A stretch of 64,000 bases of DNA, from assembly GCA_038087875.1 (NCBI GenBank), contig CM075994.1, positions 2,544,001-2,608,000 on the forward strand, given 5' to 3'. Under the pieces are notes generated by a model that had not been told where the DNA came from, made no database searches, and saw nothing but the letters and a program-made list of their open reading frames with translations. Source of the stretch: Malacoraja senta (lineage: Eukaryota). The translations under genes and the position numbers were made by a program. This document shows positions 5,890-31,806 of this stretch, one piece after another (positions within the stretch are counted from its first letter, which is position 1; every line of letters begins with the position of its first letter).

Positions 5890-6230
5890 CTGAAATGGTT
5901 CCAAAGAATGGTTAAAATTAAAAGGGAAAACTGCAAATACTGAAAAGATGAGAAAAAGCAAAACAATTAAATCAGTAGCTGTAAAGAAGAAAGAGAAGTT
6001 GCAGTGATTTACTCCGAGTTAGATGACTGAACCTAGAGCTTTACATTGGACTGGATCACCTGATGGTGACTGACAGCTCCAGAGGGAACGATCAAGAATA
6101 TGTTCTGGACAATTGGCCAGCATGTCACAGCATGAAAGTATGGAACACACTGGACCCCAGGTATCTGAATTGGAAAGAAAAGGAATAGCTACCATGGTTT
6201 TGTGCGTTGGAGATTGTGCCTCATAAACTT

Positions 6231-9200
6231 TTTTATTTTTTTATTTTTATTTTATTTATTAGAAGTACATTACATTACAACAAATTACATTAGTACTCAT
6301 CACGTGTATCTTATTACAATTAATGTACTCCATCATTTTAAAAAACTAATAAAGAGAGAAGGTTGAAATTAAGAAAAAAGAGAAAGTGAGGGAAAATAGT
6401 GAAAGTGTAAAAACGTGTCAACAGGAAAGAACAGAGACCCTGTAGAAAAGAGATTGAAAAGAAAAGATTAAGAAATAGAAAAATCTCTTTACAAGAAAAA
6501 AAAGAGAAAGAAGAGAAAAGAGAAGCACAAGTACTTTATTATGAACATCTCGCAAATGGGATATACCAACTCACCACCTTTCATCCCCCTTACCTGACAT
6601 CGGTACTTTTTAAAGTACTTTTGCACCTTATGCTTGTAATAGTTCTATAAATGCAGACCACGTCAGATGGAAGTGATCTGATTTGCCTGCCAGGAGGAGT
6701 CTTATCTCTTCTAAGTGTAATGTTTCAAACATATTTGAAATCCACATGTTTATAGTTGGTATTGGGGCATTTTTCCAGAATTTTAGGATAAGCTTTTTTC
6801 CAGTTATTAACCCGTAATCAATTAATTTCTTTTGAAACACAATTAGTTCAGGGCTATCTTCCGTTGTTCTGAAGATAATCCATTCTGCTTTTGGTGTGTT
6901 TTATTTTAAATAATATTGTAAAGATTTCAAAAATTTCAATCCAAAATGTTTGGATTTTTGTACAAAAAACAAATGAGTGCACTATAGTAGCTTCTTGAGA
7001 TTGACATTTATCGCAAATAGATGATACATTAAAGTGTGTCTTACATTAATCGAGCATTTATGCACGTTTAATAAATGTTCATTCCACCTTTCCTTTGAAA
7101 TTTTAATAGCTAATTCTTGTTCCCAGTCTCTTCTAATACCTTCCGTAGATGGTATTTCTACATTTAAGTTAATATTATACAAATACGATATTAAGTTTGC
7201 CGTTTCAGCTTTTATCTGCATTGCTTCGCCCAGTACATCTGCTGGGATATTATAATGGTCTTTTGTATATTTTTTCATAGTCACATATTTGAAAATATTT
7301 AAAATATTGATTATTTCCCAGTTTATATTTTATTTGTAATTGTTGGAATGATAGTAATTTTCCAGTTTCATACAAGTCTCCGAATGTTTTAATTCCTAGT
7401 CTATCCCATTGTATAAATGATTTGTCTGTAATAGAAGGATTAAACGAAGGGTTATTAACTATTGGAGATAAAAGCGATAGATTTCTTAATTTTAAATTTT
7501 GTTTTATTTGTTTCCAAGTTCTAATTGTACTATGTATAATTGGGTTTTTGTTATAATTTATGTTATTCAGTTTCATTGGTGAGAGGAGGATCACTCCAAT
7601 ATTACAAGAGGAGCAGTCCTCTCTCTCCATTACAATCCAGTCCACTTGCTGGGCAGAGTTGTCCATCAGTTGAATCATATTTTTAATATTTACTGACCAA
7701 TACTAATACATAAAGTTAGGGAGTGCTAAGCCCCCTAATACTTTAGCTTTGTTCAAGTGTGTTCTTTGTATTCTATGGGATTTATAATCCCATATAAAAT
7801 TAGTAATGTCTGAATCCAATTTTTTTTTTTTTTAAATATTTTTATTTTATTAGAAGTACAATTGTATACAATCATATTTTCATAATACATTTTATGTACA
7901 GCTTCTTATTTTTTTATTATAATAAAGAAGAAAAAGAAAAAGAAATTAGATAATGAAGTATAGAAAAATATGAGATATATAGTGTGTGGAAAAGAAAAAT
8001 AGAAAGTGAAAGAAGAAAGCTAAAGAATAGAAAATAGGAAAAAGAGAATAAAGGGAAGAAAAAGAAAAAAGAAGTAAGGAGATCTTATTTATAATCTTGA
8101 CCATCCCTCGCCCAGTCACGAGACAGTTAGGTTTTACAATTGTGTTGCACCATATGATTCCAAAAAGACGACAAATGGAGACCAACTCGTTATGAATTGG
8201 TCAAATTTATCTATTAGGAGGAATCGCATTTCCTCAAGATGTGCGGTGTCCAACATACTTGCAATCCACATTTTGAGCGTTGGTATTGGTGTATTTTTCC
8301 AAAACTTAAGTATTAATTTTTTTGCTATTATTAAACCATAATTAAAAAATAATTTTTGAGATGGATTCAATTTATTCCCATCTTCCATTACCCCAAATAT
8401 AATTAATTCGTTATTAGGTTCCATTTTAATCTTAAATAATTTTGTGAATATTTCGAAAATATCACTCCAAAATCTATAAAGTTTTATACAGGAAACAAAA
8501 GAGTGTGTTATAGTTGCATCTTGGGTTAAACATTTATCGCAAGTGGGGGATATATTTGGGTAGAATTTATTTAATCTTGTTTTTGAGTAATATAATCTAT
8601 GTAAAATTTTTAATTGAATTAGATTATGTCTTGCATTAATCGAACATTTGTGAATGTATGTCAAATACTTTTCCCATGTAACCTTCGTAATTTTTTTAAT
8701 CATTAATTCCCGTTCCCACTCTTCTCTAAGTACCTCTGTCGCTGGTAAATCTATATTTAAAATACTATTATATAAATATGATATTAATTTTTGTGTATCA
8801 GCTTTGATATTCATTGCTTCTTCCAAAAAATCAGGAGTTATTTTTTGATATCCTTGTATGTATGTCTTCAAGAAATTGCAAATCTGAAGATATTTAGAAT
8901 ACAATTAAAAAAAAACTTCTTTGGTAGATATATAGGAATTGATTGAAATAGGTCTAGAATTTGTGGTAAAATGATCATTTTTATTGCATTTATTCGACCT
9001 ATTAAAGACATCAGAAGCGTTTTCCAAAATTTAATTAATGTATTTAATTTATTAAGTAGAGGATTATAATTTGCTTTGAACATGCCTTGATATGTTCTGG
9101 TAATTTCAATACCCAAGTATTTAAATTTTTCTGTAGCTAATTTAAAAGGGAATTTTAAGAGATGTGTTGAGTCTTTTGGTTTTATTGACATAATTTCACT

Positions 9201-10140
9201 TTTATTCCAATTTATTCTGTATCCAGAAAAGGATCCAAAGTCCTCAATTAGATTTAGTATATTTGGTATGGTAATTTGAGGTGTTGTGATGTACAATAAT
9301 ATATCATCCGCGTATAAAGATATTTTATTATTTGAATATTTAGTGTTATAGCCATGGATATCTGGATGTGTTCTAATTTTTTCTGCTAAAGGTTCAATTA
9401 TAAGAGCAAATAACTGCGGTGATAATGAGCATCCTTGTCTGTTACCCCTTGATAGATGGAATTTCGAAGATAATATGTTATTAGTTAATATTCTAGCTGT
9501 AGGCTTATTATATAATAATTTAATCCATAAAATAAAATTCTCTCCCAATTGGAATTTTTGTAATACTTTATCTATATAATTCCATTCTACTTGATCAAAT
9601 GCTTTTTCAGCGTCCAACGAAATAATTGATAATTCTTGTTCTTCAATTTTATGTGAGTGCATTATATTGAGTAGTCGTCTCATATTATTAGATGAATATC
9701 TCTTAGGGATAAACCCCGTCTGATCTGGGTTTATTAATTTACTAATATATTTACTTAATCTTCTAGCTAATGTTTTCGCTAATATTTTTTGATCTGTATT
9801 TAACAATGCTATAGCTTTATATGAACCCGGTTCTTCTATATCTTTATATTTTTTGAGCATTAGTGTGATCGTTGATTCAGCTAATGTATCAGGTAATATT
9901 TGTTCTTTAAAGGCATATTGATACATTTTTTGTAATCGTGGTATAATTTTGTCATAAAAACTTTTATAAAATTCATTAGTAAATCCGTCAGACCTGGAGT
10001 TTTTCCATTCTTTAATTAATTTATTGTGTCTTCTAATTCCTTGATTGAAATTTGTGCACCAATTCCTCTTGTTCCTTCAACTCTAACTTTGGAAGATTAC
10101 AGTTATCCAAGAACTCTGTAATTTTATTGGTGTCCATTGT
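6231..10140 (-). mobile_element. 5'-truncated L1-clade LINE (copy A), interrupted by L1 copy B and inserted in an old plus-strand CR1 (about 5990-11090)
   Basis: RT motifs SLDAEKAFD, GNRQGCSLSP and LYADD in ORF 8868-9926. A-rich tail at about 6231-6260. TSD ctcataaactt at 6220-6230 and 10141-10151. Confidence 0.88.
7820..8902 (-). mobile_element. 5'-truncated L1 (copy B) nested in L1 copy A
   Basis: ORF 8134-8904 is the L1 ORF2 C-terminal Cys-rich region (CDKC...HSFVSC). It has its own poly-A tail at about 7820. Removing it rejoins the copy A segments YLPKKFFF and LDSDITNFIWDY. Confidence 0.82.
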
Positions 10141-11810
10141 CTCATAAACTTGACTGACTTTTTTTAGAAAAAGTAACCATGAAGGGCGATGAGAGTGGGG
10201 CCATGGACATGGTCCATATGGACCAGCAAGGCCTTTGATAAGCTTCCATATGATTGGCTGCTCTGGGAGATTAGGTTGCATTGGATCCAGGGAGAGGTAG
10301 CTAACTGGACACAGAATTGACTTCATGATAGGAATCTGAAGGTGTTGGTGGAAGATTGTTTTACAGACCGGAGGGCCTGTGGAGTGCCTCGGGGATCGTT
10401 GCTGTTTGTCATCTCTATCAATGATTTGGATGAGAATGTGCAAGGCATAATCATTAACTTTACTGATGACACTAAAATAGGTGGTAGTGTAGACTGTAAG
10501 TTGGCTGTCAAGAATTACAGTGGGATCTTGATCAGCTGGGCCAGTGAGCTGAGTGGCAAATGGAGTTTAATTCAGATTAGTGTGAGGTGTTGCATTGTCG
10601 GAGGTCAAACCTGGACATGAAATTAACTGGACAGTGAGTAGTCGGACCCTGGTTGTTGTAGAGCAGAGGATCTAGGAGTACAAATACCTAGTTTCCTGAA
10701 AGTGGCATTGCAGGTAGACTGGGTGAAGTAGGCTGTTATGGGGATGATGCCAGGACTCGCAGTCTTGGGCTATAGGGAAAGATTGGGCTGGCTTTATTCC
10801 TTGGAGGGCAGGAGGCTGAGGGGTATTCTGAGGGAAATATATAAAATCTTGAAGGGATTAGATAAGGTAAATGCAGAGTATTTCTCCCAAGGTAAATGAA
10901 TCAAGAACAAGAGAGTTTAGGTGTAAGGTGAGAGGGTGAAAGGTTAAATAGGAACCAGAGATACTCTCTCCACACGGATGGTGGTGGGTACATGGAATTA
11001 GCTACCAGAGGATATTGTTGAAGTAGGTACAAATACAACACCTAAAAGATATTTGGACAGGTACATGGATAGGAAAGATTCAAAGGGCCAGCCAGTGATG
11101 AATTATGGAAGATTATTTACATTAGATTCAAGATTCAATTTAATTGTCACATGTACCAATTAAGGTACAATTGAAATTTGAGTTACATAGGCCAAATTAG
11201 TTACAATAACACAATTTTAATCGAGACCTTAAGAAATACTTCAAACTTACTTCGGAAATTGACAAGCAGAAAAAAACCTGCCCTGAATTTTAATAGTATA
11301 GGATACAAAAAAAATTGTTTCCATGTAATCTCCCGCAATAATCAGCCACCATTGTCTCTTAAGAACACAGCCTATCAGTTTCGTCAAGGGCGGCCATCAA
11401 AATTGTCAAACAATGGCTTTTATTGACATGTGTGCAATGATATTCATATCAATATTGCACACAGGCTTTAGTATTTTAAACTTGCAGTAAAAAATAACCT
11501 CATTGCTATTAAAAAGCCTTTATTCATAAAAATCCTGCAGGGAAAATAACTTTGTTATGAGAGTCTCAATTTTCTAAATCACTTCCTCAAACACTCGGAC
11601 TTGTGAAACATGATCTCCCCTGCACAAAACCATGCCGACTCCTCCCAATCTATATCCTGCTGCAAAACCACAATATCCTAATCACTGCATGTTCTTCCAT
11701 ATCTTTTTGTATCAGCAGCAAACTTGGAAACCTTGCATTTCATTCTCTCCTCCATGTTATTAATGTATATAGTAATCAAATGAGTGCCAAGAGCTGACCC
11801 CTAAGATTCC

Positions 11811-12164
11811 CTAAAAAGCCATTCCCAAAATGGGGGCAGAGAGCCGGGGGGAGGAGGGAGGGAGGGAGGGGAGAGAGCCCGGGGGGGGGGGGGGGGGGGA
11901 GAGGAGAAGGAGAGAGATAGTCCCGGGGGGGGGGGTGGGGGTGAGAGAGAAGAATTTTTGAACATTTTCATAAATAACTCGAGAAATAATGCATGGAATG
12001 TTCAAATAAAGCGTTTTTTGACATCATGGCGTAAATCTCTATCGGAATGTAGAAAAATTTCACCGTTAGCGCGTCAGTGTTTTTGAGATGTGAAACGCAC
12101 AAGAACACACACAACACACACACACACACATCCTAGATCAGAGTTTTATAAGTATTGAGAGAGA
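11811..12164 (-). mobile_element. 5' fragment of a non-autonomous Helitron-like element, opposite orientation to the array
   Basis: Reverse complement begins A|TCTCTCTCAATACTTATAAAACTCT followed by (TG)n. This is the same head motif as the plus-strand array. No 3' terminator recognised. Confidence 0.55.
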
Positions 12165-13279
12165 TATATATATATATATTATACATATTGAACTTTTTTT
12201 TCATTTATATTATTTATAGAATAATATATTTACATATTCTGTTGTGCTGCTGCAAGTAAGATTTTTATCGTTCTGTCTGGAACATCTATCTATCTATCTA
12301 TCTATCTATATCTATCTATCTATTATTATATAAAACTCTCTGGCTGTCGTCCGTCTGTACGTCTGTACTGTCTCCAACGTTCTGCTTGACGTCCCGCATT
12401 TGATACCGCCCCGCGCACGCGCGGGCGCGGCGGAAACGCCGATATTTTTTACCGTTTCTAAAGAGGTTACGTTTATCTTTACGAATAGACGATCTGATTA
12501 AATTTGTCGTGTTTACGTACGCTTTTTAAAATAAAATACCTCTCCCCCCCCCCAAAACCAAACATTTCAAAATGTTTAAAAAAAGAGCTCAGCCGTAGAA
12601 TGTTAGTAAAGATTCCGTTGTGTGATGTCACAATGCACAATGGTCACAGATGTCCAATCGGAATGGATCCATTTACATATGCCTTTGCGGCGACCCAAGC
12701 CCCGGCCCATCCCCCCCAACCCCCGCAGCATTGGGCATTGTGACATCACAAAACGGAACCTTCATTTACATTCTATTGCTGAGAGCTGTTTGTTTAACAT
12801 TTTGAAATGTCCCCAATCCCTATCACCCCCACACACGTGGCGACGCCCTGCGACACGTGTGACTAATCGAAATGAATCCGTTTACATATGCCTTAGCAGC
12901 AGCCCCAGCCCCAGCCCTTCCTCCCCCAACCCCGCAGCCTGTGATTACGTTTATCTTTACGAATAGACAACCCTGATTAAATTTGGTCGTTTTTATGTAC
13001 ACCTTTTAAAAATAAAATACTTCTCCCCCCCCCCACCCCCAAACATTTCAAAATGATTAAAAAAACAGCTCAGCCATAGAATGTTAGTAAAGATTCCGTT
13101 GTGTGAATGTCACAATGCCCGATGCTAACAGATGTCCAATGGGAATGGATTCATTTAGATATGCCTTGGCAGCAGCCCCCAGCCCCAGCCCCTCCCCCCC
13201 ACCCCCGCAGCCTGTGTCACGTGTGTGGCAATAGAGAAAGAGGATTGGGGGTGATAGGGAATGGGTAACAGATGGACTG

Positions 13280-15580
13280 TCCCTACCCCTCCTACTTCAA
13301 CTCTCCCTCCCCACTCTTCCCCCTCTCTCCTCTCCCCCTCCCTCCCCTCCCACACCCTCTCTTCCCCCTCCACCACCCCTCTTCACCCCCATCTCCCCCC
13401 TACCCCTTCCCCTCTCTCTTGCACCACTCCCCGCTACCCCTCTGCCCCTCACTCACCACTCTTCCCCTCTCCCTCCCCAACCTCTATCCCTCCCCCCTCC
13501 CTCTCTTCCCCCTACTCCTCTCCCCTTCCCCTCATCCCCTCTCTCCACCTCTAACATCCCCTCCCCCCCTCCCCCCTTCCTGCCCTCCCCGCTCTCCTCT
13601 CACTCCCCACTCTCCTCCCCGTCCCTCTCCCCCCACCCTGCTCTCTTCTCCCTCACCAATCTCTCCCCTTTCCTCCTCCCCCTCTCTCTCCCTCCCATCC
13701 CTCCCCTCTTCTCTCCCCACCCCGTCTCCCTCTCCCCCCTCCCCCCCTCTTCTCTCCCAACCCCGTCGCCACCCTCCACCCTCCCCCACACCTCTCTACC
13801 CTTCTCCTCGCCTTACCCACCCTCTCTCCTCCCCCTCTCCATCCCCTTCTCCTCACCCCTCTCCCTCTCATCCCACCCCCATTACTCTCTCCCACATCCC
13901 CCTTCCCCTCTCTCACCCCTTCCCCTTCCCCCTACCCCGCTATCCCTCTTCAACCACTCCCCCTACACCTCTCCCCCTCCCTCTCTCCCACTTCCACCAC
14001 TCCCCCTACACCTCTCCATCTCCCTCCCCATTCTTCCACTTAACTCCCAAACCCATCCCCAACTCCCTCCACAACCCCCTCCCTCACCCTCTCCCCCCTC
14101 CCCTTCTCTCTCCACTCCCCACTCTTCCACTCTCCCTCCGCCACCTCTATCCCTCCCCCCTCCTTCTCTTCCCCCTACTCCTCTCCCCTTCCCCTCATCC
14201 CCTCTCTCCACCTCTAACCCCCTCCCCCCCTCTCCCCCTTCCTGCCCTCCCCGCTCTCCTACCACTCTCCTCCCCCTCCCTCTCCCCCACCCTGCTCTCT
14301 TCTCCCTCACCAATTTCTCCCCTTTCCTCCTCCCCCTCTCCCCTCCCTCCCCTCTCCTCTTCTCTCCCCACCCCGTCTCCCTCTCCCCTCTTCTCTCCCC
14401 ACCCCGTCTTCCTTCCCCCCCCATTCCCCCCGAGTGTGTTTGGGGGTGGTTAGTGTGAGTTTGGGGGGTGGTTAGTGTGAGTGTGATGCCGCAGCCCACC
14501 CCCCTCCCGCAAACGCGCGTTGGGAAAACAGCCGCCAACAGTCTCTCTGTCTTTAAAATATTAATATAATATCAAGGGGTGTGATGAGTGTGTGTGTTTG
14601 TGGGTGCCAGATTCACACCCCGCAACCTTGCTTTGGAGGTACAGACCCAACGGGTGGTTAGTGTGACGTCACAGCCCCCCGCCCCAAACACACGTTCGGT
14701 GTCCAGACCCAACGGGTCTGCACTTGGTCTGCACTCCCCACTCTTCCCCTCTTCCTCCACCCTCCCTCTCTTCCCCTACTCCTCTCCCCTTCCCCTCATC
14801 CCCCACCCCCCCTCTCCCCCCTTCCTGCCCTCCCGCTCTCCTCCCACTCCAAACTCTCCTCACCCTCCCTCTCACCCACCCTGATCTCCTCTCCCTCCCC
14901 AATCTCTCCCCTTTCCTCCTCCCCCTCTCCCCTCCGTCCCCTCTTCCTCCCCTCCCTCCCTCCCTCCCCTCTTCTCTCCCCACCCCGTCTCCTTCTTACC
15001 CCTCCCCTCCTCTCCCCAACCCCGTCTCCCTCTCCCCCACTCCCCCCACCTGTGTGTTTGGGGGGTGGTTAGTGTGAGTGTGATGCCGCAGCCGCAGCCC
15101 CCCCCCCCCCCAAACGCAAGGTAAACAAAAAAATGAAGTATAAACTCAGCGGATGCAGCAGCATCTTTGGATCGAAGGAAATAGGCAATGTTTCATAACA
15201 AAACACGTCTGAAGATGGGTTTCGGCCACAAACATTGCCTATTTCCTTCGTTCCATAGATGCTGCTGCACCCGCTGAATTTCACCACCTTTTTTGGGTGT
15301 ACCAGTCTCTCTGTCTCTCCCCTCTCTCTCTCTCTCTCTGCCCTTCTCTCTTCACAGCCCGCAGCTTAACTCATGAACACCAGCTCAAAACACCCCCCTT
15401 CACCTATCTCCAACATCCTCTCCTTACTCTCTCCACACCCTCCTCTCTATCCCCCTTCCTCTCTCCCCCTTCCTCTCTCCCCCTTCCTCTCCCCCCTTCC
15501 TCTCTACCCTCCTCCTCCCCCTCTTCAAATTTTTTTAATTCTAACATTAAATTTTCACTCTCTGCCCCCCCCTCCAGATG
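13280..15580 (+). repeat. C/T-rich low-complexity tracts in Helitron unit 1; homologous tract at about 16785-18510 in unit 2
   Basis: Long near-pure polypyrimidine stretches with short C runs. Sub-blocks are shared between the two units. Confidence 0.9.
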
Positions 15581-18500
15581 CACCTGAGAGGAGGTGAGGG
15601 CTATTCGTCAGTGGATAGGGTGGAGATGGGATAAAAGAAGCAAATAAAAAATTAAGATAATATCAAGGGTTGTTATGAGTGTGTGTGTTCGTGGGTGCCA
15701 GATTCCCACCCCGCAACCGTGCTTTTGAGCAAAGGGGGTGGTTACTGTGACGCCACAGCACCCCCCCCCCCCCCACCCGCAAACGCACGTTCGGTGTCCA
15801 GACCCAACGAGTCTGCACTTGGTCTAGTTATTATATAAAACTCTCTGGCTGTCGTCCGTCTGTACGTCTGTACGTCTGTACGTCCAACGTTCTGCTTGAC
15901 GTCCCGCTTTGATACCGCCCCGCGCCCGCGCGGCGCGCGGAAACGCCGATATTTTTTACCGTTTCTAAAGAGGTTACGTTTATCTTTACGAATAGACGAT
16001 CCTGATTAAATTTGGTCGTGTTTACGTACGCTTTTTAAAATAAAATACCTCTCCCCCCCCCCAAACCAAACATTTCAAAATGTTTTAAAAAACAGCTCAG
16101 CCGTAGAATGTTAGTAAAGATTCCGTTGTGTGATGTCACAATGCACAATGGTCACAGATGTCCAATCGGAATGGATCCATTTACATATGCCTTTGCGGCG
16201 ACCCAAGCCCCGGCCCCTCCCCCCCAACCCCCACAGCATTGGCATTGTGACATCACAAAACGGAACCTTCATTTACATTCTATTGCTGAGAGCTGTTTGT
16301 TTAACATTTTGAAATTTCCCCCATTCCCTATCACCCCCACACGTGGCGACGCCCGGCGACACGTGTGACAAATCGAAATGAATCCGTTTACATATGCCTT
16401 GGCAGCAGCCCCAAGCCCCAGCCCCTCCCCCCCAACCGCACAGCCTGTGATTACGTTTATCTTTACGAATAGACAACCCTGATTACATTTGGTCGTTTTT
16501 ATGTACACTTTTAAAATAAAATACTTCTCCCCCCCCACCCCCAAACATTTCAAAATGATTAAAAAAACAGCTCAGCCATAGAATGTTAGTAAAGATTCCG
16601 TTGTGTGATGTCACAATGCCCGATGCTAACAGATGTCCAATGGGAATGGATTCATTTAGATATGCCTTGGCAGCAGCCCCAGCCCCTCCCCCCCACCACT
16701 GCAGCCTGTGTCGAAGGGCGTCGTCACGTGTGTGGCAATAGAGAGAGGATTGGGGGTCATAGAGAATGGGTAACAGATGGACTGTCCCTACCCCTCCTAC
16801 TTCAACTCTCCCTCCACACTCTTCCCCCTCTCTGCTCTACCCCTCCCTCCCCTCCCACACCCTCTCTTCCCCCTCCACCACCCCTCTTCACCCCCATCTC
16901 CCCCCTACCCCTTCCCCTCTCTCTTGCACCACTCCCCGTTACCCCTCTGCCCCTCACTCACCACTCTTCCCCTCTCCCTCCCCCTCCCTCTCTCCCTCTC
17001 TTCCCCCTACTCCTCTCCCCTTCCCCTCATCCCCTCTCTCCACCTCTAACATCCCCTCCCCCCCTCCCCCCTTCCTGCCCTCCCCGCTCTCCTCCCACTC
17101 CCCACTCTCCTCCCCGTCCCTCTCCCCCCACCCTGCTCTCTTCTCCCTCACCAATCTCTCCTCTTTCCTCCTCCCCCTCTCTCCTCCCTCCCCTCCCTCC
17201 CCTCTTCTCTCCCCACCCCGTCTCCCTCTCCTCCCTCCCCCCTCTTCTCTCCCAACCCCGTCGCCACCCTCCACCCTCCCCCACACCTCTCTACCCGTCT
17301 CCTCGCCTTACCCACCCCTCTCCTCCCCCTCTCCATCCCCTTCTCCTCACCCCTCTCCCTCTCATCCCCCTCTTCCTCCACCCCCATTACTCTCACCCAC
17401 ATCCCCCTTCCCTCTCTCACCCCGTCCCCTTCCCCCTACCCCGCTATCCCTCTTCAACCACTCCCCCTACACCTCTCCCCCTCCCTCTCTCCCACTTCCA
17501 CCACTCCCCCTACACCTCTCCATCTCCCTCCCCATTCTTCCACTTAACTCCAAACCCATCCCCATCTCCCTCCACAACCCCTCCCCCACCCCTCTCCCCC
17601 CTCCCTTCTCTCTCACTCCCCACTCTTCCACTCTCCCTCCCCACCTCTATCCCTCCCCCTCCTTCTCTCCCTCTCTTCCCCCTACACATCTCCCCTTCCC
17701 CACATCCCTCTCTCCACCTCTAACATCCCCTCCCCCCCTCTCCCCCCTTCCTGCCCTCCCCGCTCTCCTACCACTCTCCTCCCCCTCCCTCTCCCCCACC
17801 CTGCTCTCTTCTCCCTCACCAATTTCTCCCCTTTCCTCCTCCCCCTCTCCCCTCCCTCCCCCTCTCCTCTTCTCTCCCCACCCTGTCTCCCTCTGCCCTC
17901 TTCTCTCCCCATCCCGTCTTCCTCTCCACCCCTCCCCCGCCTGTGTTTGGGGGTGGTTAGTGTGAGTGTGATGCCGCAGCCCCCCCCCCCCTCCGCAAAC
18001 GCGCGTTGGGAAAACAGCCCGCCAACAGTCTCTCTGTCTTTAAGACAGAACTGCAGATGCTTGAAATCAAAGGTACACAAAAAAAGGCTTCATAACCTCA
18101 GCGGGTGCAGCAGCATCTATGTATCAAAAGAAATAGACAACGTTTCGTGAAAACCCGTCTGAGGATGGGTTTCCGCCAAAAGCATTGCCTATTTCCTTCA
18201 CTCCATAGATGCTGCTGCACCCGCAGTGTTTCTCGAGTTTTATTGTGTGTACCAGTCTATCTGTCTCTCCCCTCTCTCTCTCTCTCTGCCCTTCTCTCTT
18301 CACAGCCCGCGACTCAACTCATGCACGCCTACTCCAACCCACCCCCTCTCACCTCTCTCCCCATCCTCTTCTTCCTCTCTCCACCCCTCTCCTCTCTCAC
18401 GCTCCTCTCTCCCCACCTTCCTCACCCCTCTTCCTCTCAACCCTCCTCCTCCCCCACCTCACAATTTTTTTTCTAACATTAAATTTTCTCTCTCTGCACC

Positions 18501-18773
18501 ACCCCCCCCTCGAGACGTACCTGAGAGGTGAGGGCTATTCGTCAGTGGATAGGGTGGAGATGGAATAAAAGAAGAAAATTAAAATATTAATATAATATCA
18601 AGGGGTGTGATGAGTGTGTGTGTTTGTGGGTGCCAGATTCACACCCCGCAACCCTGCTTTGGAGGTACAGACCCAACGGGTGGTTAGTGTGATGTCACAG
18701 CCCCCCGCCCCAAACGCACGTTCGGTGTCCAGACCCAATGGGTCTGCACTTGGTCTAGTATACTTTTAAAACT

Positions 18774-18973
18774 NNNNNNNNNNNNNNNNNNNNNNNNNNN
18801 NNNNNNNNNNNNNNNNNNNNNNNNNNNNNNNNNNNNNNNNNNNNNNNNNNNNNNNNNNNNNNNNNNNNNNNNNNNNNNNNNNNNNNNNNNNNNNNNNNNN
18901 NNNNNNNNNNNNNNNNNNNNNNNNNNNNNNNNNNNNNNNNNNNNNNNNNNNNNNNNNNNNNNNNNNNNNNNNN
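18774..18973. other. Assembly gap (200 N)
   Basis: Run of N beginning just after a Helitron unit head. Confidence 1.
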
Positions 18974-19467
18974 TACACAAAAAAACCTGTATATCATCAG
19001 CAGGTGCAGCAGCATCTATGGATCGAAGTAAATAGGCAACGTTTCGGTAGAAAACCAGTCTGAGGATGGGCTTCGGCCCAAAGCGTTGCCTATTTCCTTC
19101 GCTCAATAGATGCTGCTGCACCCGCTGTGTTTCTCAAGCTTTTTTTTGTGTACCAGTCTCTCTGTCTCTCCCATCTCTCTCTCTCTCTCTCTGCCCTTCT
19201 CTCTTCACAGCCCGCGACTCGACTCATGCACGCCCGCTCCAACCCCCCTTCACCTCTCTCCCCATCCTCTCTTTCCTCTCTCCCCCCTTCCTCTTCAAAT
19301 TTTTTTTTTCTAACATTAAATTTTCCCCTCTGCCCCAACACCTCTAGACGCATCTGGGAGGTGAGGGCTATTCGTCAGTGGATAGGGTGGAGATGGGATA
19401 AAAGAAGCAAATTAAAAAATAAATAATATCAAGGGGTGTGATGAGTTTGTGTGTTTGTGGGTGCCGG

Positions 19468-22398
19468 ATAGAAACATAGAAACATAGAAACATAGAAAGT
19501 AGGTGCGAGAGTAGACCACCAGGCCCATCGAGCCCGCACCGCCATTCGCTCATGGCTGAACACTAAACAGACACCCTTACCCACAAACAGTAGACACAAG
19601 ACACAGAACACAAGACACTACCCTCCCCTTTATATCGCTATCACCCCTCTCCACCCAAGAACCGCGTGATCTCCTGGGGGAGGCAAAAAAACGGATAAAA
19701 ACCCAGGTCCAATTCGGGAAAAAAATCCGGGAAATTCCTCTCCGACCCCAATCCAGGCGATCGACACTTGTCCAGGAGATCACTCAGGTCTTACTATACT
19801 AACCATACCTAGGTCCATATCCCTGCCCTCTCCCCGTAGCCCCTTATCCCTTGGCAGCTAAAAACCCATCTATTTTAGACTTAAATATATTTAATGTTTC
19901 TGCTTCCACTGCTCCCTGGGGCAGTGAATTCCATAAATTAACCACCCTCTGGGTGAAGAAGTTCTTCCTCATCTCAGTTTTAAAGAGCCCCCTCTTATTC
20001 TACAACTATGTCCCCTAGTTCTAGTTTCCCCAATCATTGGGAACATCCTCGGTGCATCCACCCGATCAAGGCCCCTCACGATCTTATATGTTTCAATGAG
20101 ATCGCCTCTCATTCTTCTAAACTCCAAAGAGTAGAGTTCCAGCCTACTTAACCTTTCCTCATATGTCAATCCCCTCATTGCAGGAATTAATCTTGTAAAC
20201 CTTCGCTGCACTGCCTCCAGGGCCAGTACATCCTTTCTTAAGTATGGACCCCAGAACTGTACACAGTATTCCAAATGTGGTCTCACTAATACTGTGTACA
20301 GCTGCAGCAAGACCTCCGTGTTTTTATACTCAATCCCCCTAGCAATAAAGGCCAAAACTCCATTGGCCTTCCTGATTGCTTGCTGCACCTGCATACTAAC
20401 TTTTAGTGATTCATGTACTACTACCCCTAGATCCCTTTGCGTTGCATTACAACGCAGCTCCACCTCATTTAGAAAATAACTTGCCCTATCATTTTTTTCC
20501 CAAAGTGAATGACTTCACATTTATTAGTATTAAATTTCATCTGCCAAGTTGTTGCCCACTCACCTAGCTTATCTATATCCTTTTGCAGACTCTTCCTATC
20601 CTCCTCATCCCCTACTTTTCCTCCCATTTTTGTATCGTCCGCAAATTATGATATATTACACTTGGTTCCCTCCTCCAAATCATTTATATAAATTGTGAAC
20701 AACTGGGGTCCCAGCACCGACTCTTGCGGAACCCCGCTAGTTACCGGTTGCCATCCCGAGTATGAACCATTTATCTCCACTCTCTGCTTCCTATTTGTTA
20801 GCCAATCCTCTACCCATGCTAATATATTACCCCCAATCCCATAATTTTTTATTTTTAGCAATAGTCTCTTATGTGGCACCTTGTCAAAAGCCTTTTGGAA
20901 GTCCAAGTATACCACATCCACCGGTTCCCCTTTATCCACCCGGGTTGTTACTTCCTCAAAGAATTCGAGCAGATTCGTTAAACAGGACTTCCCCTTCACA
21001 AAACCATGCTGGTTCTGTCCGATGAAGTCATGTTTATCCAAGTGCCCCGTTAGTGTTTCTTTAATAATTGTCTCTAACATTTTACCCACCACCGATGTTA
21101 GACTAACCGGTCCATAGTTACCCGCCTTCTGTTTACTTCCTTTTTAAAATATAGGTGTTACATTGGCCATTTTCCAATCCACTGGGACCGTTCCTGCCTC
21201 CAGGGAGTTTTGGAAAATTATCACCAATGCATCCACAATCCCCACCGCTATCTCCCTCAAGACCCTTGGATGTAATCCATCAGGCCCAGGGGATTTATCC
21301 TCCTTCAGTCTCATTAATTTCCCTAATACCACCTCCTTGGTGATCTTAATAGTATTTAGCTCCTCCATTCCTACCGCCCCCTGTTTATCCAGCGTTGGAA
21401 TATTTTTTGTGTCTTCTATGGTGAAGACTGATACAAAATACTCGTTTAATGCCTTTGCCATTTCCATGTTCCCCACCAACAACTCTCCAGTCTCACCCTC
21501 CAATGGACCAACGTTCACCTTAGCCACCCTTTTTCTTTTTATATAGCTATAAAAACTCTTACTATTAGTTTTTATGTTGTTCGCTAAATTCCTTTCATAG
21601 TCTATTTTCCCCGTCTTAATTAATCTCTTAGTTATTTTTTGCTGACCTTTAAATGCTTCCCAATCCTCTACCCTCCCACTATCTCTGGCTACCTTATATA
21701 CCCTTGCCTTCAGCCGAATACTATCCTTTATAGTTTTACTGAGCCATGGCTGACTGTTCTTTCCCTTACCCCTTTTTTTCTTCATAGGAATAAATTTTTC
21801 TTGAAGGTTATACAGTAGATCCTTAAACGTACACCACTGCTCATGTACCGTCTTATTCTTGAGTCTGCTATCCCAGTCAACTTTGATCAGCTCAGTCCTC
21901 ATACCTTCATAATCCCCTTTATTTAGACTAAGTACCCTAGCCCGAGTTTCAACCTGCTCCCCTTCTATTTGAATATGGAATTCGACCATATTGTGGTCAC
22001 TTGTTCCCAACGAGTCCCTAACTATGACATTTTTAATTAATCCTGCTTCATTACACAGGACCAGATCCAAGATTGCCTCCCTCCTTGTCGGTTCTGTGAC
22101 ATACTGTTCTAGGAACCCGTCTCTAATACATTCTATAAACTCTTCCTCTAGTCTACCCTGCCCAGTTTGGTTTGCCCAATTAATATGAAAATTGAAGTCC
22201 CCCATGATTACAGCAGTTCCCTTTTTACATGCGTCAACTATTTGCAGATTTATGTTCTGACTAACAGCGTCACAGCTATTTGGAGGTCTATAAATTACAC
22301 CCACTAGTGTTTTTTTCCCCTTGTTATTCTCTATCTGTACCCAAGCTGTTTCACTATCCTGATCCTTCAACGCAATATCCTTCCTCTCTATTGCCGTT
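19468..22398 (-). mobile_element. CR1 LINE (part of the endonuclease, RT and 3' UTR; frameshifted) inserted in the Helitron array
   Basis: ORFs 21144-22370 (YRPPNS, MGDFN, SDH), 20646-21092 ([13 protein letters not shown]) and 19969-20463. (CTATGTTT)n tail at about 19468-19500. Array sequence resumes on both sides. Confidence 0.92.
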
Positions 22399-22639
22399 AT
22401 TCACTCCCTTATTACGTGCTTTGGAGGAAAGGGGGTGATTAGTGTGACGCCACAGCCTTCCCCCCCCCACAAACGCACGTTCGGTGTCCAGACCCAACGG
22501 GTCTGCACTTGGTCTAGTATACTTTTAAAACTCTCTGGCTGTCGTCCGTCTGTCCGCCACTCCTGATTAAATCCGGTCCTGTTTATGTACACGTTTTTAA
22601 AATAAAATCTATCCCCCCCCCCCACCCCACCCCCATGTG

Positions 22640-23240
22640 ATTTTCTCCAATTGTCTCCGATTTTCTCCAAAAACGACGCCATCTTTTTTCTCCGATTTTC
22701 TCCGAAAACGACGCCATCTTTTTTTCGCCGATTTTCTCCGATTTTTTCCGAAAACGACGCCATCTTTTTTTCAGCAGATTTTCACCCCGGGGTCTGAAGC
22801 ACGTTCGGGAACAACACCCCGGGGTGTCAAGCACTTTCGGGGACCAGACCCAACGGGTCTGCACTTGGTCTAGTATACTTTTAAAACTCTCTGGCTGTCG
22901 TCCGTCTGTACGTCTGTACGTCTGTACGTCCGTACGCCGCCTTTGATGCCGCCCCTGGCCCACACAGCGCGTGGAAAGGCCCATATTTTTTACCATTCCC
23001 AAAGAGATGTCATTTATCTTTACGAATAGCCACTCCTGATTAAATTTCGTCGTTTATGTACACGTTTTTAAAATAAAATCCACCCCCCCCCACCCCCATG
23101 TGATTTTCTCAGATTCTCTCCGATTTTCTCCGAAAACGACGCCATCTTTTTTTCTCCGATTTTCTCCGAAAACGACACCATCTTTCTTTCGCCGATTTTT
23201 TCCCCCGAAAACGACGCCCTCTTTTTTTCCACGATTTTCA
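22640..23240 (+). repeat. ~33-bp minisatellite blocks inside Helitron units 4 and 5
   Basis: Repeats of ccgattttctccgaaaacgacgccatcttttttt, about 3 copies at 22640-22785 and about 3 at 23103-23240. Confidence 0.85.
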
Positions 23241-23303
23241 CCCCGGGGTCTGAAGCACGTTCGGGAACAACACCCCGGGGTGTCAAGCACTTTCGGGCAC
23301 TAG

Positions 23304-23830
23304 TAAAAGTCTTGTCTTGTTTGTCTGTCTGTGAGATCAAGGAACTACACCAAAACGGTACACAATAGAGCAAATTTATTTGCAGAATCTTACTCAGCTT
23401 TTTCCCGTGGTCTTACGTTTCAAGTTTCTTCACTTTTGATGTTATATTTTACAAGAAATTTTACATTTTTAAACTTAAAAACTCAAGATTTGGGAATAAA
23501 GGGGGGACCTACGCCAAAACGGTACACGGTAGTGCATACATTTTTGCATCACCTTACGCACCTTTGTCCTGTGGTCTTCCCTGTGAAGTTTCCTTCAGAT
23601 TTGATGTTATATTTCACGTCATTGATATTTAAACGTTTCAAAAAGCCAAATTCTCAAAATAACTGTTACTGTGCTATGAGAGGTTTTGACAGTTGCAGGG
23701 ATGATGTCACAATTGCATCTCACAGTTGCTTTCTTTTAAAAGACTACCACTTGTCAGATGCTGATTTATTCATCAGCTCCCAGTCTCCATTCACCAGGTC
23801 CCCTTTACAGCATTGAGAGCAGCCTTCCTC
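23304..23830 (+). mobile_element. Possible different Helitron-like family abutting the array
   Basis: Starts right after CTAG with taaaagtcttgtcttgtttgtctgtctgt, a microsatellite-type head. Internal ~150-bp imperfect duplication (ccaaaacggtacac ... gtggtctt ... tgatgttatattt). 3' end not identified. Confidence 0.35.
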
Positions 23831-23832
23831 TT

Positions 23833-25208
23833 TAGGCTGTGGGCCGAGCATCAAAAATGTGTCTAGAATCCAGTTTTCGTGACCCAAGTCACCAAACTAC
23901 ATGAAACTTTCCACAGATTTAGATGAAATATAAGTGAGAAGGAAGTCATAACTCGTCATTGCCAAAAGCGGCACATTAATTAATTAAACTAATTAGAAAA
24001 TGAGATCGGGAAAGTAAGCGCCATCTAGTGGCCAATGCCCATATTACACCATGGGCAGCCTATTTCCGTGTTGCAGTCCATTTAAACTATATATGATTAT
24101 ATATGATCTGGAGGTCCGGGCCGCTGAGGATGTTCTCCGTCGGGGTTCGGCGTCGGGGTTCCACCGTTCCCAGCGAGAGGGCCCGGACCTCCAGATCAGC
24201 CACCTCCCACCGGAGTCCGCAGGCCGAGCCGGGTGGAGTCGCAGGACTCCGCGATGTTGGTCAGCGCCGCCCGCGTTGGGAGCTCCGCGAACCACAGATC
24301 CGCGCTGTCGGTGCAGCAGGCCCAGCACTCCGGAGCTCCAAACCACGATCCCCGGTAAGGCATCGCCCGCCCCGCGATGTTTCCAACGTTGTGCCGCTGC
24401 TGCCGGAGCGGGGGGGGGGGGGGGGCGAGGACGCGACTCGAATAATAGTCGCATCCTCTCAAGGAAGCGACTGAAGGACGGTATCCCCCTTATCGTACCC
24501 TCTTCCCCCACATAAAAACATTTTTAAAAAAAACACAAAAACCGCTCCTCAAACATAACAAAAACATAACAAAAAAACAAAAAGATACCGGACTGAAGGC
24601 GGAGGCAGCTAGGAACAGGTGAATGTATGAATGAGTGAATGAATGAGTGAATGTACAGCCTCCAAATCTCATTTTTTCACATTATAAAGGCGCAATTAAA
24701 TTAATTAAAGTGCATACAGATTAATTTTCATAAATTCAGACTTTAGATTTTACCTGATCAGTTCCAGGTGATTCACAAAATTTGACAGCAGCACCTCAGG
24801 CAGGGACATTGCTTTCAAGACTTTATTCCCCTTAGCTGCACATTCTTCAGACTTCTTCATGCTTTTCTCACTAAATACAATTACCCTGCTGCAAGTTTCC
24901 ATGACATGTATTCCACAATTAGAAAAAATCTTCATCGGAATCTCCAGTAAAACAGGCATCAGTGAAGCCCTCTCAGTGCTCCCTGCCTAGCTAGCCTGAA
25001 ACAAAGCGCGTGATTGGCCAACTGGCTTACAACTCAATGTTAAACATGCTTTGATTGGACTAAAAATAGTTTTTCTCTAATTTAATGAAAATGTGCAAGT
25101 CTTGTTCATGACGAGTTTCAGGGGTGATTTATATGATTTTTTTACACAATATGTGAAAATTTCATGTAGTTTGGTGACTTAGGTCACGAGCTCCTCGGCC
25201 AAAGCCTA
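23833..25208. mobile_element. Non-autonomous TIR DNA transposon, Academ-like
   Basis: Termini TAGGCT..GGCCGAG and CTCGGCC..AGCCTA. Subterminal inverted repeat cgtgacc(c/t)aagtcaccaaactacatgaaa at 23878-23906 and 25160-25188. 3-bp TSD CTT at 23830-23832 and 25209-25211. TAG/CTA ends with a 3-4 bp TSD are Academ features. Confidence 0.7.
24017..24034 (-). promoter_or_regulatory. CTCF-binding motif (near consensus)
   Basis: Minus strand reads TGGCCACTAGATGGCGCT, close to the CTCF consensus TGGCCACCAGGGGGCGCT. Binding is not demonstrated. Confidence 0.6.
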
Positions 25209-25492
25209 CTTCCATTTCAGGACCTTAATTTGAGGCCCTTGGCCTGATCCCTTTCACTTTACAGAATGGTGGTCACTGTTCCCAAAGTGTTTCCCCACCA
25301 ACACTTCCACCACCCACTCACTTTTATTATCTAAGATAAGGTCAAGTCCTGTTCTGTCTCTCGTTGGTCTCTCTAAATATAGCCTCAAAAAACTTTCTTG
25401 GATGCACTTCACAAATTCCACCCCCTCTAACGTCCTTGAACTAAGGCAATTCCAGCCAATACTGACAAAGTTTAAATCGGCAATAGTAAAAA

Positions 25493-25780
25493 GGATGGCA
25501 CGGTGGCGCAGTGGTAGAGTTGCTGCCTTACAGCACCAGAAATCTGCGTTTGATCCTGACCACTGGTGCTATTTTCCTCGTGACCTGCATGGGTTTTCTC
25601 CGGGAGCTCCGATTTCCACACACACTCCAAACACGTACAGGTTTGTAGGCTAATTGGCCTGGTAGGGTTGTCCCTAGTGTTTGTACGATGGTGTTGGCCT
25701 GCGGGGAATCTCTGATCGGCGCAGACTCAGTGGGCCGAAGGACCTGTTTCCACACTGTATCTCTAAAGTAAACTAAAACT
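25493..25780 (+). mobile_element. tRNA-derived V-SINE (HE1-like), near full length
   Basis: A box tggcgcagtgg, B-box-like gtttgatcc, V-domain-like core, and a tail ending ctaaagtaaactaaaact. Confidence 0.8.
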
Positions 25781-27015
25781 ATATTGCCCTTGCATCTTTC
25801 TGACATTTGCTTAGATCTTCTTAGACAACAAAAACTCATATGTCAGACTGTTATTCATTGATTAAAAACTTTCCAAGTGTTTCCCAATCAGAAGCCTTGG
25901 ATGAACTATGAGATTCGCACTCCTCTGAAGACCAGACACCGGGCATTCATGTCTGATGATACAGTGGTCGACAAGAAGTCCAGATACGACCTTGGTAAGG
26001 CCATCAAAAAGGCCAAAAGGGACTTCTGCTCCAAACTGGAGGATGAGACAGATGTTCGGCAGCTGTGGTGGGACTTGAATACAATCACCTCCTACAAGGC
26101 GAGATCAGGAGGCAGCTCGAATGTCAGCGAAACATCACTCCCTGACGAGCTCAATGCGTTTTACGCACGCTATGATAGGGAGAACACTGATATGCCTTCT
26201 CGAGCCCCCATTCGCTGTGATGGTATTTCAGTCACAGTCACAGAGGCCGACGTCAGAAATCCTTCAGAGGGGTGAACCCTTGAAAAGCGCCTGGACCTGA
26301 TGGTATACCCGGTCGTGTTCCAAAAATCTGTGCGGACCAACTGGCTGGAGTTTTTAACGGACATTTTCAACCTCTCACTGCTGAGGTCCCCACCTGCTTT
26401 AAAAGGGCATCAACCAAGAAGAGCAAGGTGACGTGCCTCAATGACTATCGACCAGTGGTCTGTGGTGATGAAGTGCCTTGAGAGGTTGATCAAGGCGCAA
26501 ATCAACTCCTACCTCGACAAAAACCTGTTTGCTTACCGCCACAACAGATCAACGGTGGATGCGATCTCGCTGGCTCTTCACTCTGCTCTGGACCACTTGG
26601 ACAACAAAAACTCATATGTCAGGCTGTTATTCATTGATTACAGCTCGGCATTTAATACAATCATCCCCTCCAAGCTGGTTACCAAACTCGCAGAACTGGG
26701 TCTCTGCGCATCCCTCTGCAATTGGATCCTCGACTTCCTCATTCACAGACCACAGTCAGTTCGTATTCGTGTAAATGTGTCAGCCTCAATAACAATCAGC
26801 ACGGGAGCACCTCAAGGCTGCGTGCTTAGCCCCCTGCTGTACTCGCTCTATACTCATGACTGCATAGCCGGTCATAGCGCGAACTCCATCATCAAGTTCG
26901 CTGACGATACCACTGTTGTGGGACATATCACTGATGGGGACGAGTCGGAGTACAGAAGTGAGATCGACCATCTGACCAAATGGTGCCAGCACAATAGCCT
27001 GGCCCTCAACACCAG

Positions 27016-27555
27016 TGTTATGCGCTCCCCCTCCTGGTCAATGTTATGTATTAACCTTTCTCTGTTTCTTTCCCGAGTGCAGGCTAAAAGGCTCCTGTAC
27101 CCGATTGGCCAAGCTGCGTCAGGTAACGGGTGATTCACCTGAAGTATAAATAGCAGATTTCCCAGAATTCTGTCTCTCTCCGACGACCCTGTCTCGTGAG
27201 CTGATTGCTGTTGTGGGCTGTGGAAAGGCCCGGCCACATGGCATAGAACTTTGTGTAATTTCAACAATACGCAGTACCAAATATTGAATTGGGCTGTCCT
27301 TAGACGTTATCGGTATTTTGTTTCAGGGATAGCTTTCTTTTAGGCAGGTTTAGAGCCTCGGGTTCGATGGTCCATCGCGTGGCTGGCCTGAGCACTTTTA
27401 AGTTGTTTGTTAATCCATTCATATCCTTGTCTGGGTTGTTTGAATCAGGTTTGGGTTTGGTGTGTTATTAAATAATTAAACTATTTTTGAACGTAAACCT
27501 GGCTTTTGAACTGTGTTACGCGGCTCTGGATTGCCTGCTTTCGGGAGTCGTAACA
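27016..27555 (+). repeat. 5' LTR
   Basis: TGTTA...TAACA with ATTGG box and TATAAATA. About 7 substitutions relative to the 3' LTR by manual comparison. Confidence 0.95.
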
Positions 27556-27558
27556 AAA

Positions 27559-27571
27559 TGGGGGCTCGTCC
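27559..27571 (+). promoter_or_regulatory. Primer binding site complementary to tRNA-Pro
   Basis: TGGGGGCTCGTCC, 3 nt after the LTR, equals the first 13 nt of the classical tRNA-Pro PBS. Confidence 0.85.
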
Positions 27572-27723
27572 TAAGTTTTAAGAACCCTAGACGTTTGTGG
27601 GGGGGGGGGGGTTGGGGAGGCTTCTGGACTGAGGAAGTCTGTGTGTTGTGAGGGAAATGTTTCTTCCCTGTTTGTGGTAGCATTGGTGCCCAGGGTTTAG
27701 CTGGTGCTTTGGCTACATTTGAT

Positions 27724-30700
27724 ATGGAGTCTAAATGGAAGGACTTTATTGAGGCTCCTAGTCGGGAGTTGTTTGAACTGAGGGAGATGGAGCTTGAGTC
27801 ATAGAGAATGGCGTCCGCCTTAAAAAAGGATGAGCTCATGCATGTTCTTGAAATGAAACGGCTTGAGCTTGAGGAGGAAACCAAGAGGGCACAGATTCGG
27901 CTGCGGGGGAAAGAATTAGATAGGATTATGGAAGACTTTGGGAACTGTCTCCCTGAGAGGGTTACTGTTTACCTTAATGAGCAGAAAGTGAATGGGGTGT
28001 CTAAGGCCGCGGTGTTGTCAGATGAGTATGTATGGACTCATAAAGCTGATTTTGTTGGGCGCTCCTATAGTTTTGGTGCACGGCCGGTTGATCGTGGTGG
28101 TGTCGCCGGTGGCAGTGTCAAAGGTGTATCTGTGCCTGCAAGTGGCAGCACGTTGATACAGAGGGAGGTCCGAGCTGATAGGATGGAAGGAAATTTGAGG
28201 ACTAGCAAAGGTCCTGTGTGCTACTATTGTAGAGGGAGAGGGCACAGGTTAAAGGCGTGTCCCGTTCTGAAGCGGAAAAAGGAAAAGACTGTGGCTTTGG
28301 TGGGTACACAGAAGGCACCTGGGGTGCCTGAGTCTGATAAGTGTAGGGATGATTCTGCGTTCAGCATGAATGATTTTGTTTCTCTGGAGGATCGGGGCAA
28401 TAGAGTTCCAGTATCCATCTTGCGTGATACTGGTGCTACTCAGTCCTTTATATTGGATAGTGTACTGCCGTTTTCTGCGGAATCATTGGTTGGGTCAAGT
28501 GTCCCTGTGGTAGGATTCGGGATGGATGACATGGTAGTACCTTTGCATACCGTGAGTCTCGAGTCCGAGTTGGTTTCAGGCCGGGTAACTGTTGGGTTAC
28601 GGCCGTGTTTTCCCGTTGAGGGAGTTTCAGTAATTTTGGGGAATGACTTGGCAGGAGATGGAGTTTTGGTTACTCCTGAGGTAACGGCTGTTCCGATGGT
28701 GCAGAGGCCTGATGGGTTGGCTATGCAGCATCCGAAGGTCGTCGCAGCTTGTGCTGTCACGAGGGCTATGGCTGAGAGCCATGCGAAATCTGAGGATGTA
28801 GTGGACCTGAGTGAGAGCATTTTGGGGGATCAGAAGGAGGGATCCTGTGTTATGAAGGGTGTTTCTACATCTCAAGATGAGATAGTGTCTGAAAATGGGC
28901 TGGTGTCGCAGTCACGTGACCGGCTGGTTGAGGAGCAAAAGAGTGATCCAGGTTTGTCTGAGCTGTTCGACTGCGCGGTGCCTGAGGGGGATAGGGAACC
29001 CACAGCAAAGGGTTTTTTTCTAAGGGAGGGCTTACTAATGCGAAAGCGGTCTCCCTTGGATGTATCTGGGCATGATGATTGGAGCGTGGTTGATCAGGTT
29101 GTGATACCTCGTCGGTATAAGGACGGGATACTGTTTGGCTCATGATGGACCTCTGGGTGGACATTTGGGAGTCAATAAGACGAATGACCATATCTTACGA
29201 AAAAAAATTTGGCCAGGGTTGAAAAGGGACGTGAAACAGCATTGCAGGTGTTGTCACATTTGCCAGGTGGCAGGAAAGCCGAACCAATTGATTGTTCCTG
29301 CGCTTTTATATCCAATCCCTATGGTCGGTGTGCCGTTTGGGCGGATTCTAGTCGATTGTGTGGGTCCTCTACCTCGGACCAAGGTGGGCAACAAGTTTTT
29401 GTTGACAATAATGTGTGCGTCTACCCGCTTTCCGGAGGTGGTCCCTTTGCGTAGAATTACTGCCCCTACCATTGTGAAGTCTCTCACTAAGTTTTGTTGT
29501 TCGGTTTGCCAAAGGTGGTGCAGAGTGACCAAGGTTCCAACTTCATGTCGAAGGTTTTTGGTCAGGTAATGCAGTTATTAGATATCAAGCATTGTTACTC
29601 CAGTGCGTATCACCCTGAGAGCCAGGGAGCCCTCGAGAGGTTTCACCAAACTTTGAAATCGATGTTGAGGACTTACTGCCTGGAGTTTGAAAAGGACTGG
29701 GATGAGGGGGTTCATCTGGTTATGTTTGCGGTGCGTGAGGTCGTGCAGGAGTCTTTGGGGTTCAGTCCTGCTGACCTGGTGTTCGCGCATACCGTACGTG
29801 GTCCGTTAAGGGTCCGAAAAGAGAAATGGTTGCAGGAGGATACAAATCGAAGTATTTTAGACCACGTCTGTACCTTTCGGTCTAGACTAAAGAGGGCATG
29901 CAAACTGGCAATGGGTAATCTTGCTACTGCTCAGTCTAGGATGAAGGGGTGGTTCGACAGGAAGGCTTCGGGTAGGAATTTTTCTCCAGGTGACAAGGTC
30001 CTGGTGTTGTTGCCTATTCCTGGTTCCAGTCTGCAGGCTCGGTATAGCGGTCCCTATCAGGTGGTTAAGAAGGTTGGTGAAAGGGATTATGTTATTGGTA
30101 CCCCTGATCGAAGGCGTAAGACCCAGCTCGGTCATGTCAACATGATGAAGCAGTACCATGAGCAGGAGCCTGTGGAGGTTGATGGGGAGGTGCTGTGTCC
30201 TTCGGTTTCGTCTAAGCCCGTTTTGGCTGCAGTGGTGCTGCCCCCTGACACGGGTGGTGATGTGGGTGAGACACGGTTGTCGGTGGCAGTGACGCAGGGA
30301 AGGCTGTGTAACTCCGAGGCTTTGAAGTCGCTTCTCTTGCGGCTGGCACATTTGACTGAAAGTCAACGGGGTGATCTGCTTGCTTTGGTGAAGTCAAATG
30401 GGTCACTGTTCTCGGATGTGCCTTCTCAGACGTCTGTGCTGCAGCATGACATTGACGTGGCCGGTGCTGGGCCAATTAAACAGCATCCGTATCGGGTCAA
30501 CCCTGACAAGCGTCATCGTCTAGCGAGTCAGGTTGACTATATGCTGCGGCATGGCATTGCTGAATCTAGTTGTAGTCCGTGGAGTTCTCCGTGTCTACTG
30601 GCTACGAAGGCAAATGGGGAGGACAGGTTTTGCACGGACTTTCGGAAAGTAAACGGTGTAACTAAGCCGGATTGCTATCCTCTCCCACGAATGGAGGATT

Positions 30701-31740: not shown

Positions 31741-31806
31741 TTTCGGGGATTTGGTGGTGTTTTTTCTCTCTTCTTCCGAAACTTATTCAGTATCTTTGAG
31801 TGGGGG

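Follow-up and report, generated by a model that had tools for sequence, protein, structure and literature searches.

Introduction

Insertion of one Helitron into another is already published. In Myotis, a Helitron inserted against another has been described together with new 3' ends and terminator bypass (sections of PMC4778049 and PMC4224331), and excerpts of PMC5148889 report Helitron self-insertion in fungi, including a triple that was read either as repeated insertion at the 5' end or as rolling-circle copying. In circles of the Helraiser element CTAG is joined directly to TC (parts of PMC4778049 and PMC5876387). Non-autonomous elements that carry a microsatellite in the head or internal tandem repeats are common, according to portions of PMC4344730, PMC4683698 and PMC13404089. 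For skates, the sections of the HELIANO supplement used here class the Repbase entries Helitron-1_AmRa and Helitron-2_AmRa of Amblyraja radiata as canonical Helitrons (HLE1) and count 11,154 HLE1 calls for Leucoraja erinacea (PMC11417382). Thus, skate Helitrons are known and abundant, and existing catalogues include autonomous HLE1 Helitrons from skates. The word "Helitron" has 0 occurrences in the main text of the little skate genome paper (PMC10115646).

Here we analyse a window of 64,000 nucleotides from the skate Malacoraja senta, for which a preliminary description had reported an ~11 kb head-to-tail array of at least five Helitron-like units in a host intron. The locus is a real, mostly ordinary cluster of non-autonomous HLE1-type elements, smaller and messier than first described.

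Results

The cluster lies within one TMEM181 intron

The minus strand of the window is the TMEM181 locus, as indicated by Pfam domains on minus-strand ORFs, and the TMEM181 exons are collinear along it from 62660 to 1611. A query of one 41-residue exon matched the skates L. erinacea and A. radiata with 100% identity over 95% of its length, and sharks and other rays with 88–92% identity. The entire cluster is contained in a single intron (5890..34368, minus strand, 28,479 bp or ~28.5 kb) with GT-AG splice sites (donor GT at 34368, acceptor AG at 5891-5890), which confirms the reported intronic position. The exons on either side are consecutive in TMEM181 and joined in phase, and therefore no exon is concealed by the 200-N assembly gap within the cluster. 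That the gap might conceal exons had been considered when tblastn missed residues 314-363; a word scan located both exons.

The window contains further repeats. LINE copies with RT domains are found in TMEM181 introns at 6600-10566 (minus strand), 19470-22414 (minus strand) and 36851-41093. An LTR retrotransposon at 27015-32347 (plus strand) has 542-bp LTRs that are 98.7% identical, and its Pfam domains follow the order zinc knuckle, integrase, RT and RNase H, with the integrase before the RT; we take this to be a Gmr1-like order. A Tc1/mariner-type element at 41931-43547 has 215-bp inverted repeats (96.7%) and an ORF with a transposase HTH (42300-43004). Finally, a repeat of ~90 bp is present in many copies (3232-3824, 44979-45556, 52658-53048, 54919-55829, 59597-59841 and 62133-62545), several of which form close inverted pairs, such as 55569-55659 with 55691-55781.

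The array consists of unlike and partly broken elements

The array at 12285-23303 is real, yet it is not made of five like units. The unit boundaries given in the preliminary description (15827/8, 18758/9, 22517/8, 22873/4 and 23303) are correct, its junction strings are as quoted, and the units abut with no spacer. The contents of units 1 and 3 are different from what was proposed.

At the left edge, an A is followed by a TCTA run of nine blocks, one of them TCTATA (12285..12322, plus strand, as are all units below). The last of these blocks is the 5' end of unit 1 itself, whose first part, unit 1a (12319..14730), has the full head, TCTA followed by TTATTATATAAAAC, and ends in a hairpin. It contains a GTCY-type microsatellite, a C-rich tract and an internal duplication; the duplicated block, thought to be ~475 bp, measures ~265 bp at a spacing of 478 bp, and its copies have diverged by 9–10%. 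At 14704-14730 there is a sixth, broken end, in which the hairpin is present and the CTAG is interrupted after CT. This broken end is where two elements, reported together as unit 1, are fused. The second, unit 1b (14731..15827), is headless, belongs to another subfamily (11.5% from unit 2) and ends in a hairpin with one mismatch followed by CTAG. Unit 2 (15828..18758) has a perfect 7-bp hairpin 8 nt upstream of its CTAG. Unit 1a corresponds to unit 2 with a deletion of ~535 bp at a TTAA microhomology; the two differ by ~2% substitutions.

Of unit 3, only the initial 15 nt of the head (18759..18773) precede the end of the contig. There the assembly gap of 200 N begins (18774..18973), and the two halves of the array meet only across this gap, the length of which is nominal. 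The distal part of unit 3 (18974..19469) is 8–10% from units 1b and 2. What had been taken for a ~3 kb Helitron interior is a minus-strand LINE (19470..22414), which we assume to be of the CR1 type; it is 5'-truncated, encodes endonuclease and RT domains and carries an 8-bp tail repeat, and its insertion removed 14 bp of the target and left no target site duplication. The terminus of unit 3, with hairpin and CTAG, follows at 22415..22517. Thus, of the 11,019 bp reported as array, 200 are gap and ~2,945 are LINE, so that ~3 kb are an unrelated retrotransposon plus assembly gap.

Unit 4 (22518..22873) has a body like that of unit 5, with a minisatellite and an internal deletion of ~115 bp, to which the shared hairpin end has been added. 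Unit 5 (22874..23303) has the minisatellite body and a different, imperfect hairpin, and it ends in CACTAG. The C-rich tracts and the minisatellite (35-46 bp) noted earlier are therefore both present. The sequence past 23303 is not unique flank; it belongs to a repeated element, B (23304..23756, 3' end approximate), with a similar, truncated head (TAAAAGTC plus GTCT repeats), in which no hairpin-CTAG end was seen. Each long unit also contains an inverted repeat with arms of 69-91 nt at 76–80% identity (15120-15303 in unit 1b, 18072-18253 and 18979-19146), which may derive from a palindromic element that was captured or has decayed. Visible unit lengths range from 0.36 to 2.9 kb, and neighbours are mostly 5–12% apart; only the pair 1a/2 is as close as ~2%.

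This pair differs in an unusual manner. Between unit 1a (12323-14556) and unit 2 (15828-18043) we count 46 indels, 32 of them of one base, and 44 substitutions, only 16 of which are transitions. Indels per substitution amount to 0-0.03 in four other repeat pairs of the window and to 0.19-0.47 in other pairs of the array's own family. The excess of one-base indels and the scarcity of transitions suggest base errors, or unpolished sequence, at the contig end. Together with the position of that contig end inside the array, they are what one would expect if unit 1a or unit 2 were a false duplicate, or if repeats had been misjoined across the gap. We nevertheless consider an assembly product very unlikely: the flanking exons follow one another in TMEM181 and in phase, unit 1a differs from unit 2 by a clean deletion, the 1a-1b junction occurs in an independent sequencing run, and the right half runs into host intron sequence without interruption.

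Heads and ends point to canonical Helitrons

A 28-nt head pattern has four copies in the window and a 29-nt end pattern has five, compared with 0 in 100 shuffles for either. The claim that all five units share a head and a hairpin-CTAG end thus stands in part. The 7-bp stem 8 nt before CTAG is found at four of the five named ends (three perfect, one with a mismatch); the end at 23303 lacks this shared hairpin, and unit 1b has no head. A strict scan of the window for a hairpin followed by CTRR and T returned five matches, of which three are unit ends and two are probably due to chance. A T follows CTAG at all five ends, and an A precedes the left edge of the stack (A|TC). A 5' TC terminus after A is seen at the leftmost head only, one of six heads if B is counted, and no target duplication was found in the flanks of the array. 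Terminal or subterminal inverted repeats were not detected in any of the five unit spans, where the longest inverted match between head and tail is 4-6 nt (P 0.48-1.0 versus resampled sequence). Element B, with 9 nt (P 0.065), is the best case for HLE2-like subterminal repeats.

A hairpin 8 nt before CTAG, CTAG|T ends, A|TC and the lack of subterminal inverted repeats fit HLE1 as defined in the parts of PMC11417382 that were used. Judged by these sequence features, the units appear to be non-autonomous canonical Helitrons rather than HLE2 or DINE-1 elements, in line with the identity first assigned to them. No RepHel domain was detected among the 156 window ORFs scanned, and Rfam gave 0 matches in the window.

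Matches to 12324-13290 yielded a list of nine public runs, and contigs of four of them (X1, X6, X8 and X9) were aligned to 22380-23900. In X8, X9 and X6 the bins of the shared end are 1.8e4-7.8e4 times as deep as the lowest flanking bin, a ratio to be read as an order of magnitude only, as contig depth does not equal copy number; X1 has no depth in that flanking bin. In X6 the shared end is ~75-145 times deeper than the bins after it, depth falls almost to zero across the interiors of units 4 and 5, and the sequence leading up to the end is mixed (agreement 0.52-0.57). This indicates that one 3' end serves many interiors. Moreover, both of the two contigs reaching 22873 among those listed stop exactly at CTAG. 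The 3' end is therefore extremely abundant, sharply bounded at CTAG and present on many interiors. Neither end nor head patterns matched metagenome contigs, viral contigs or prokaryote genomes (0 matches), as expected for a vertebrate repeat.

A separate repeat to the right of the array, at 23877-25189, has 35-nt inverted arms (94%) and a GC-rich insert, and its left edge is also deep in X8, X9 and X6. It contains a motif (24018-24031) that, as far as we can judge, resembles a CTCF site.

The junctions suggest serial insertion into resident heads

The internal joints were compared with what is expected of concatemers, in which CTAG should be followed directly by TC. This combination is seen at none of the five junctions. 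The preliminary description had invoked concatemer formation and a satellite in formation, and indeed the units share a single orientation throughout, units 1a and 2 are 2% apart and tandem Helitron arrays are known (sections of PMC5876387). The other neighbours, in contrast, have the divergence and unequal lengths given above, unit 1b sits between 1a and 2, and in X6 the depth drops sharply past the shared end. For the visible part of the array, a rolling-circle concatemer or nascent satellite is thus largely refuted, and we regard it as highly improbable. Nor does an overlap of head and end at TCTA, as proposed earlier, suffice, since it leaves the G in every junction unexplained; insertion accounts for the junction.

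The head of unit 2 is the head of unit 1 less TCTA, with 34 nt identical, and the missing piece stops at an A|T step. All four internal family heads begin in the same register, 9 nt upstream of AAAAC. On the 3' side of the split site 13-14 of 15 nt are A or T at the four family heads; of the window's 4,788 A|T steps, 370 have at least 13 of 15 such nucleotides downstream. This context agrees with the preference of Helraiser for AT-rich DNA 3' of its target (parts of PMC4778049), and it could also explain the common orientation. TCTA runs of at least three blocks occur, on either strand of the 64-kb window, only directly left of the stack.

We think it probable that the stack was built by copies that inserted one after another at an A|T step located 4 nt into the head of a resident, followed by deletion, an end swap and a LINE insertion. 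The full head would be TCTA + 9 nt + AAAAC, and an incoming TC...CTAG copy would cut a resident head at TCTA|T. Each insertion would create a CTAG|T(T/A) junction at its right-hand border and add one TCTA at the left-hand one, and the stack would be extended leftwards, from B, the oldest element and presumptive landing pad, through 5, 4, 3 and 2 to 1. The other TCTA blocks left of unit 1 would then be head remnants of nested insertions. Later, unit 1a would have suffered a deletion and become fused to 1b, one terminator being lost; unit 4 would have arisen by an exchange of 3' ends, and the LINE would have inserted into unit 3. The units would have been mobilised by RepHel encoded elsewhere in the genome. 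Growth by repeated insertion at its own ends, as already suggested, is supported by the head register, the missing TCTA and the mixed subfamilies among neighbouring units.

Contig data from the public runs bear on this order of events. Among the contigs listed, all five that reach the B head stop matching at 23304-5. In X6, contigs join the shared end to the B head at depths of 408 and 871, compared with 42 in the lowest flanking bin; these joints may represent one amplified composite, and not repeated insertions. Nesting predicts that age rises rightwards. Sites at which at least 80% of the X8 depth differs from the window number, among the sites listed, 1 in 356 bp of unit 4, 6 in 430 bp of unit 5 and 11 in 453 bp of B, which matches the predicted order, in a sample of 40 of 137 rows and 32 of 22,554 pieces selected by the tool. 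Against it, the tail of unit 3 has one such site in 103 bp and departs from the age order, and the LINE held by this unit has several breaks.

Other observations also count against the model of serial insertion. Nine TCTA blocks stand against six or seven visible elements, slippage alone can produce such a run, and element B lacks a recognisable Helitron 3' end. The inclusion of TCTA in the head rests on one copy, since a solo copy with its 5' flank was not seen among the 24 of 969 loose contig ends listed. Moreover, a minus-strand element at ~11800-12165, 120 bp from the array and in the opposite orientation, has a related head, which matches that of unit 5 at 15 of 16 nt and lies behind (TA)n and (TC)4; no hairpin-CTAG end was seen in it. 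Near 12165 it reads TC + 9 nt + AAAAC. This would favour TC as the missing piece, with the cut at C|T for units 3-5, or else a 5' end other than TC.

A second explanation requires an end other than TC. In this scenario elements start at the T located 9 nt ahead of AAAAC, new copies land precisely against the 5' end of a resident, and the TCTA run, a microsatellite of the host, was their target. Such precise abutting would account for the identical register at the four internal heads, which comprise two sequence types; abutting insertions are known in Myotis (excerpts of PMC4778049), and a lepidopteran Helitron-like family is reported to disrupt microsatellites. Since no remainder of a microsatellite is found right of the stack and the break in element B lies elsewhere in its head, besides the need for a non-TC end, we consider this explanation unlikely.

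It is also quite unlikely that terminator bypass brought several units here from elsewhere as one or two preassembled blocks. Bypass and compound elements have been published (portions of PMC4778049 and PMC4224331), and end-to-head joints exceed the lowest-bin depth in X8 and X6. The 1a/1b fusion recurs, with slightly different letters, in one X1 contig; the junction thus exists outside this assembly, but the contig could stem from the same locus in another animal. Block transposition would, moreover, relocate the origin of the junctions without explaining them, and it is compatible with serial insertion.

Discussion

Beyond this locus, it is conceivable, although we put it forward as doubtful, that the Helitrons of skates target a fixed site within their own sequence, 4 nt in from the 5' end, which would yield oriented stacks genome-wide and, with one TCTA per round, (TCTA)n runs that count insertions. 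A self-target leaving such a tally is possibly a new detail: no report of skate Helitron stacks, or of TCTA runs made by nesting, was found in the full-text literature, a search outside which most subscription papers lie. If true genome-wide, it would provide a readable insertion history and a transposon-driven origin of TCTA microsatellites. It would also allow the choice of targets by Helitrons to be tested directly in a group of vertebrates with tens of thousands of these elements. The locus carries a caution as well, as apparent arrays are inflated by gaps and nested LINEs, and such stacks break assemblies.

Among known systems, the units most resemble canonical HLE1 Helitrons, with which they share the hairpin and CTAG, the T after the end, the A|TC left edge and the lack of terminal inverted repeats. 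Helitron-1_AmRa and Helitron-2_AmRa come from the same host group, the skates (supplement of PMC11417382, as used above), and differ from the array units, which are without coding capacity; this comparison is one of class, not of termini. The 17-mer of the array hairpin is absent from the available text of that supplement.

The non-autonomous Hel-2 elements of Lepidoptera, as described in parts of PMC4344730, are alike in their TC...CTAG ends, 3' stem-loop, CTGT-type head microsatellite and internal tandem repeats. They have subterminal inverted repeats, however, which the array units lack, and the same parts describe no stacking. DINE-1 and Helentron elements (HLE2; excerpts of PMC4067079) likewise share a head microsatellite, central tandem repeats and a 3' stem-loop. 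In contrast to the array, they have subterminal inverted repeats of ~11-18 nt and a T-T target, whereas the units here end in CTAG|T and the left edge reads A|TC. Finally, the self-inserting fungal elements are non-canonical Helitrons that resemble Helitron2, unlike the array, and the self-insertions in Myotis and fungi are pairs or triples, whereas here six or seven elements stand in one register next to a TCTA run.
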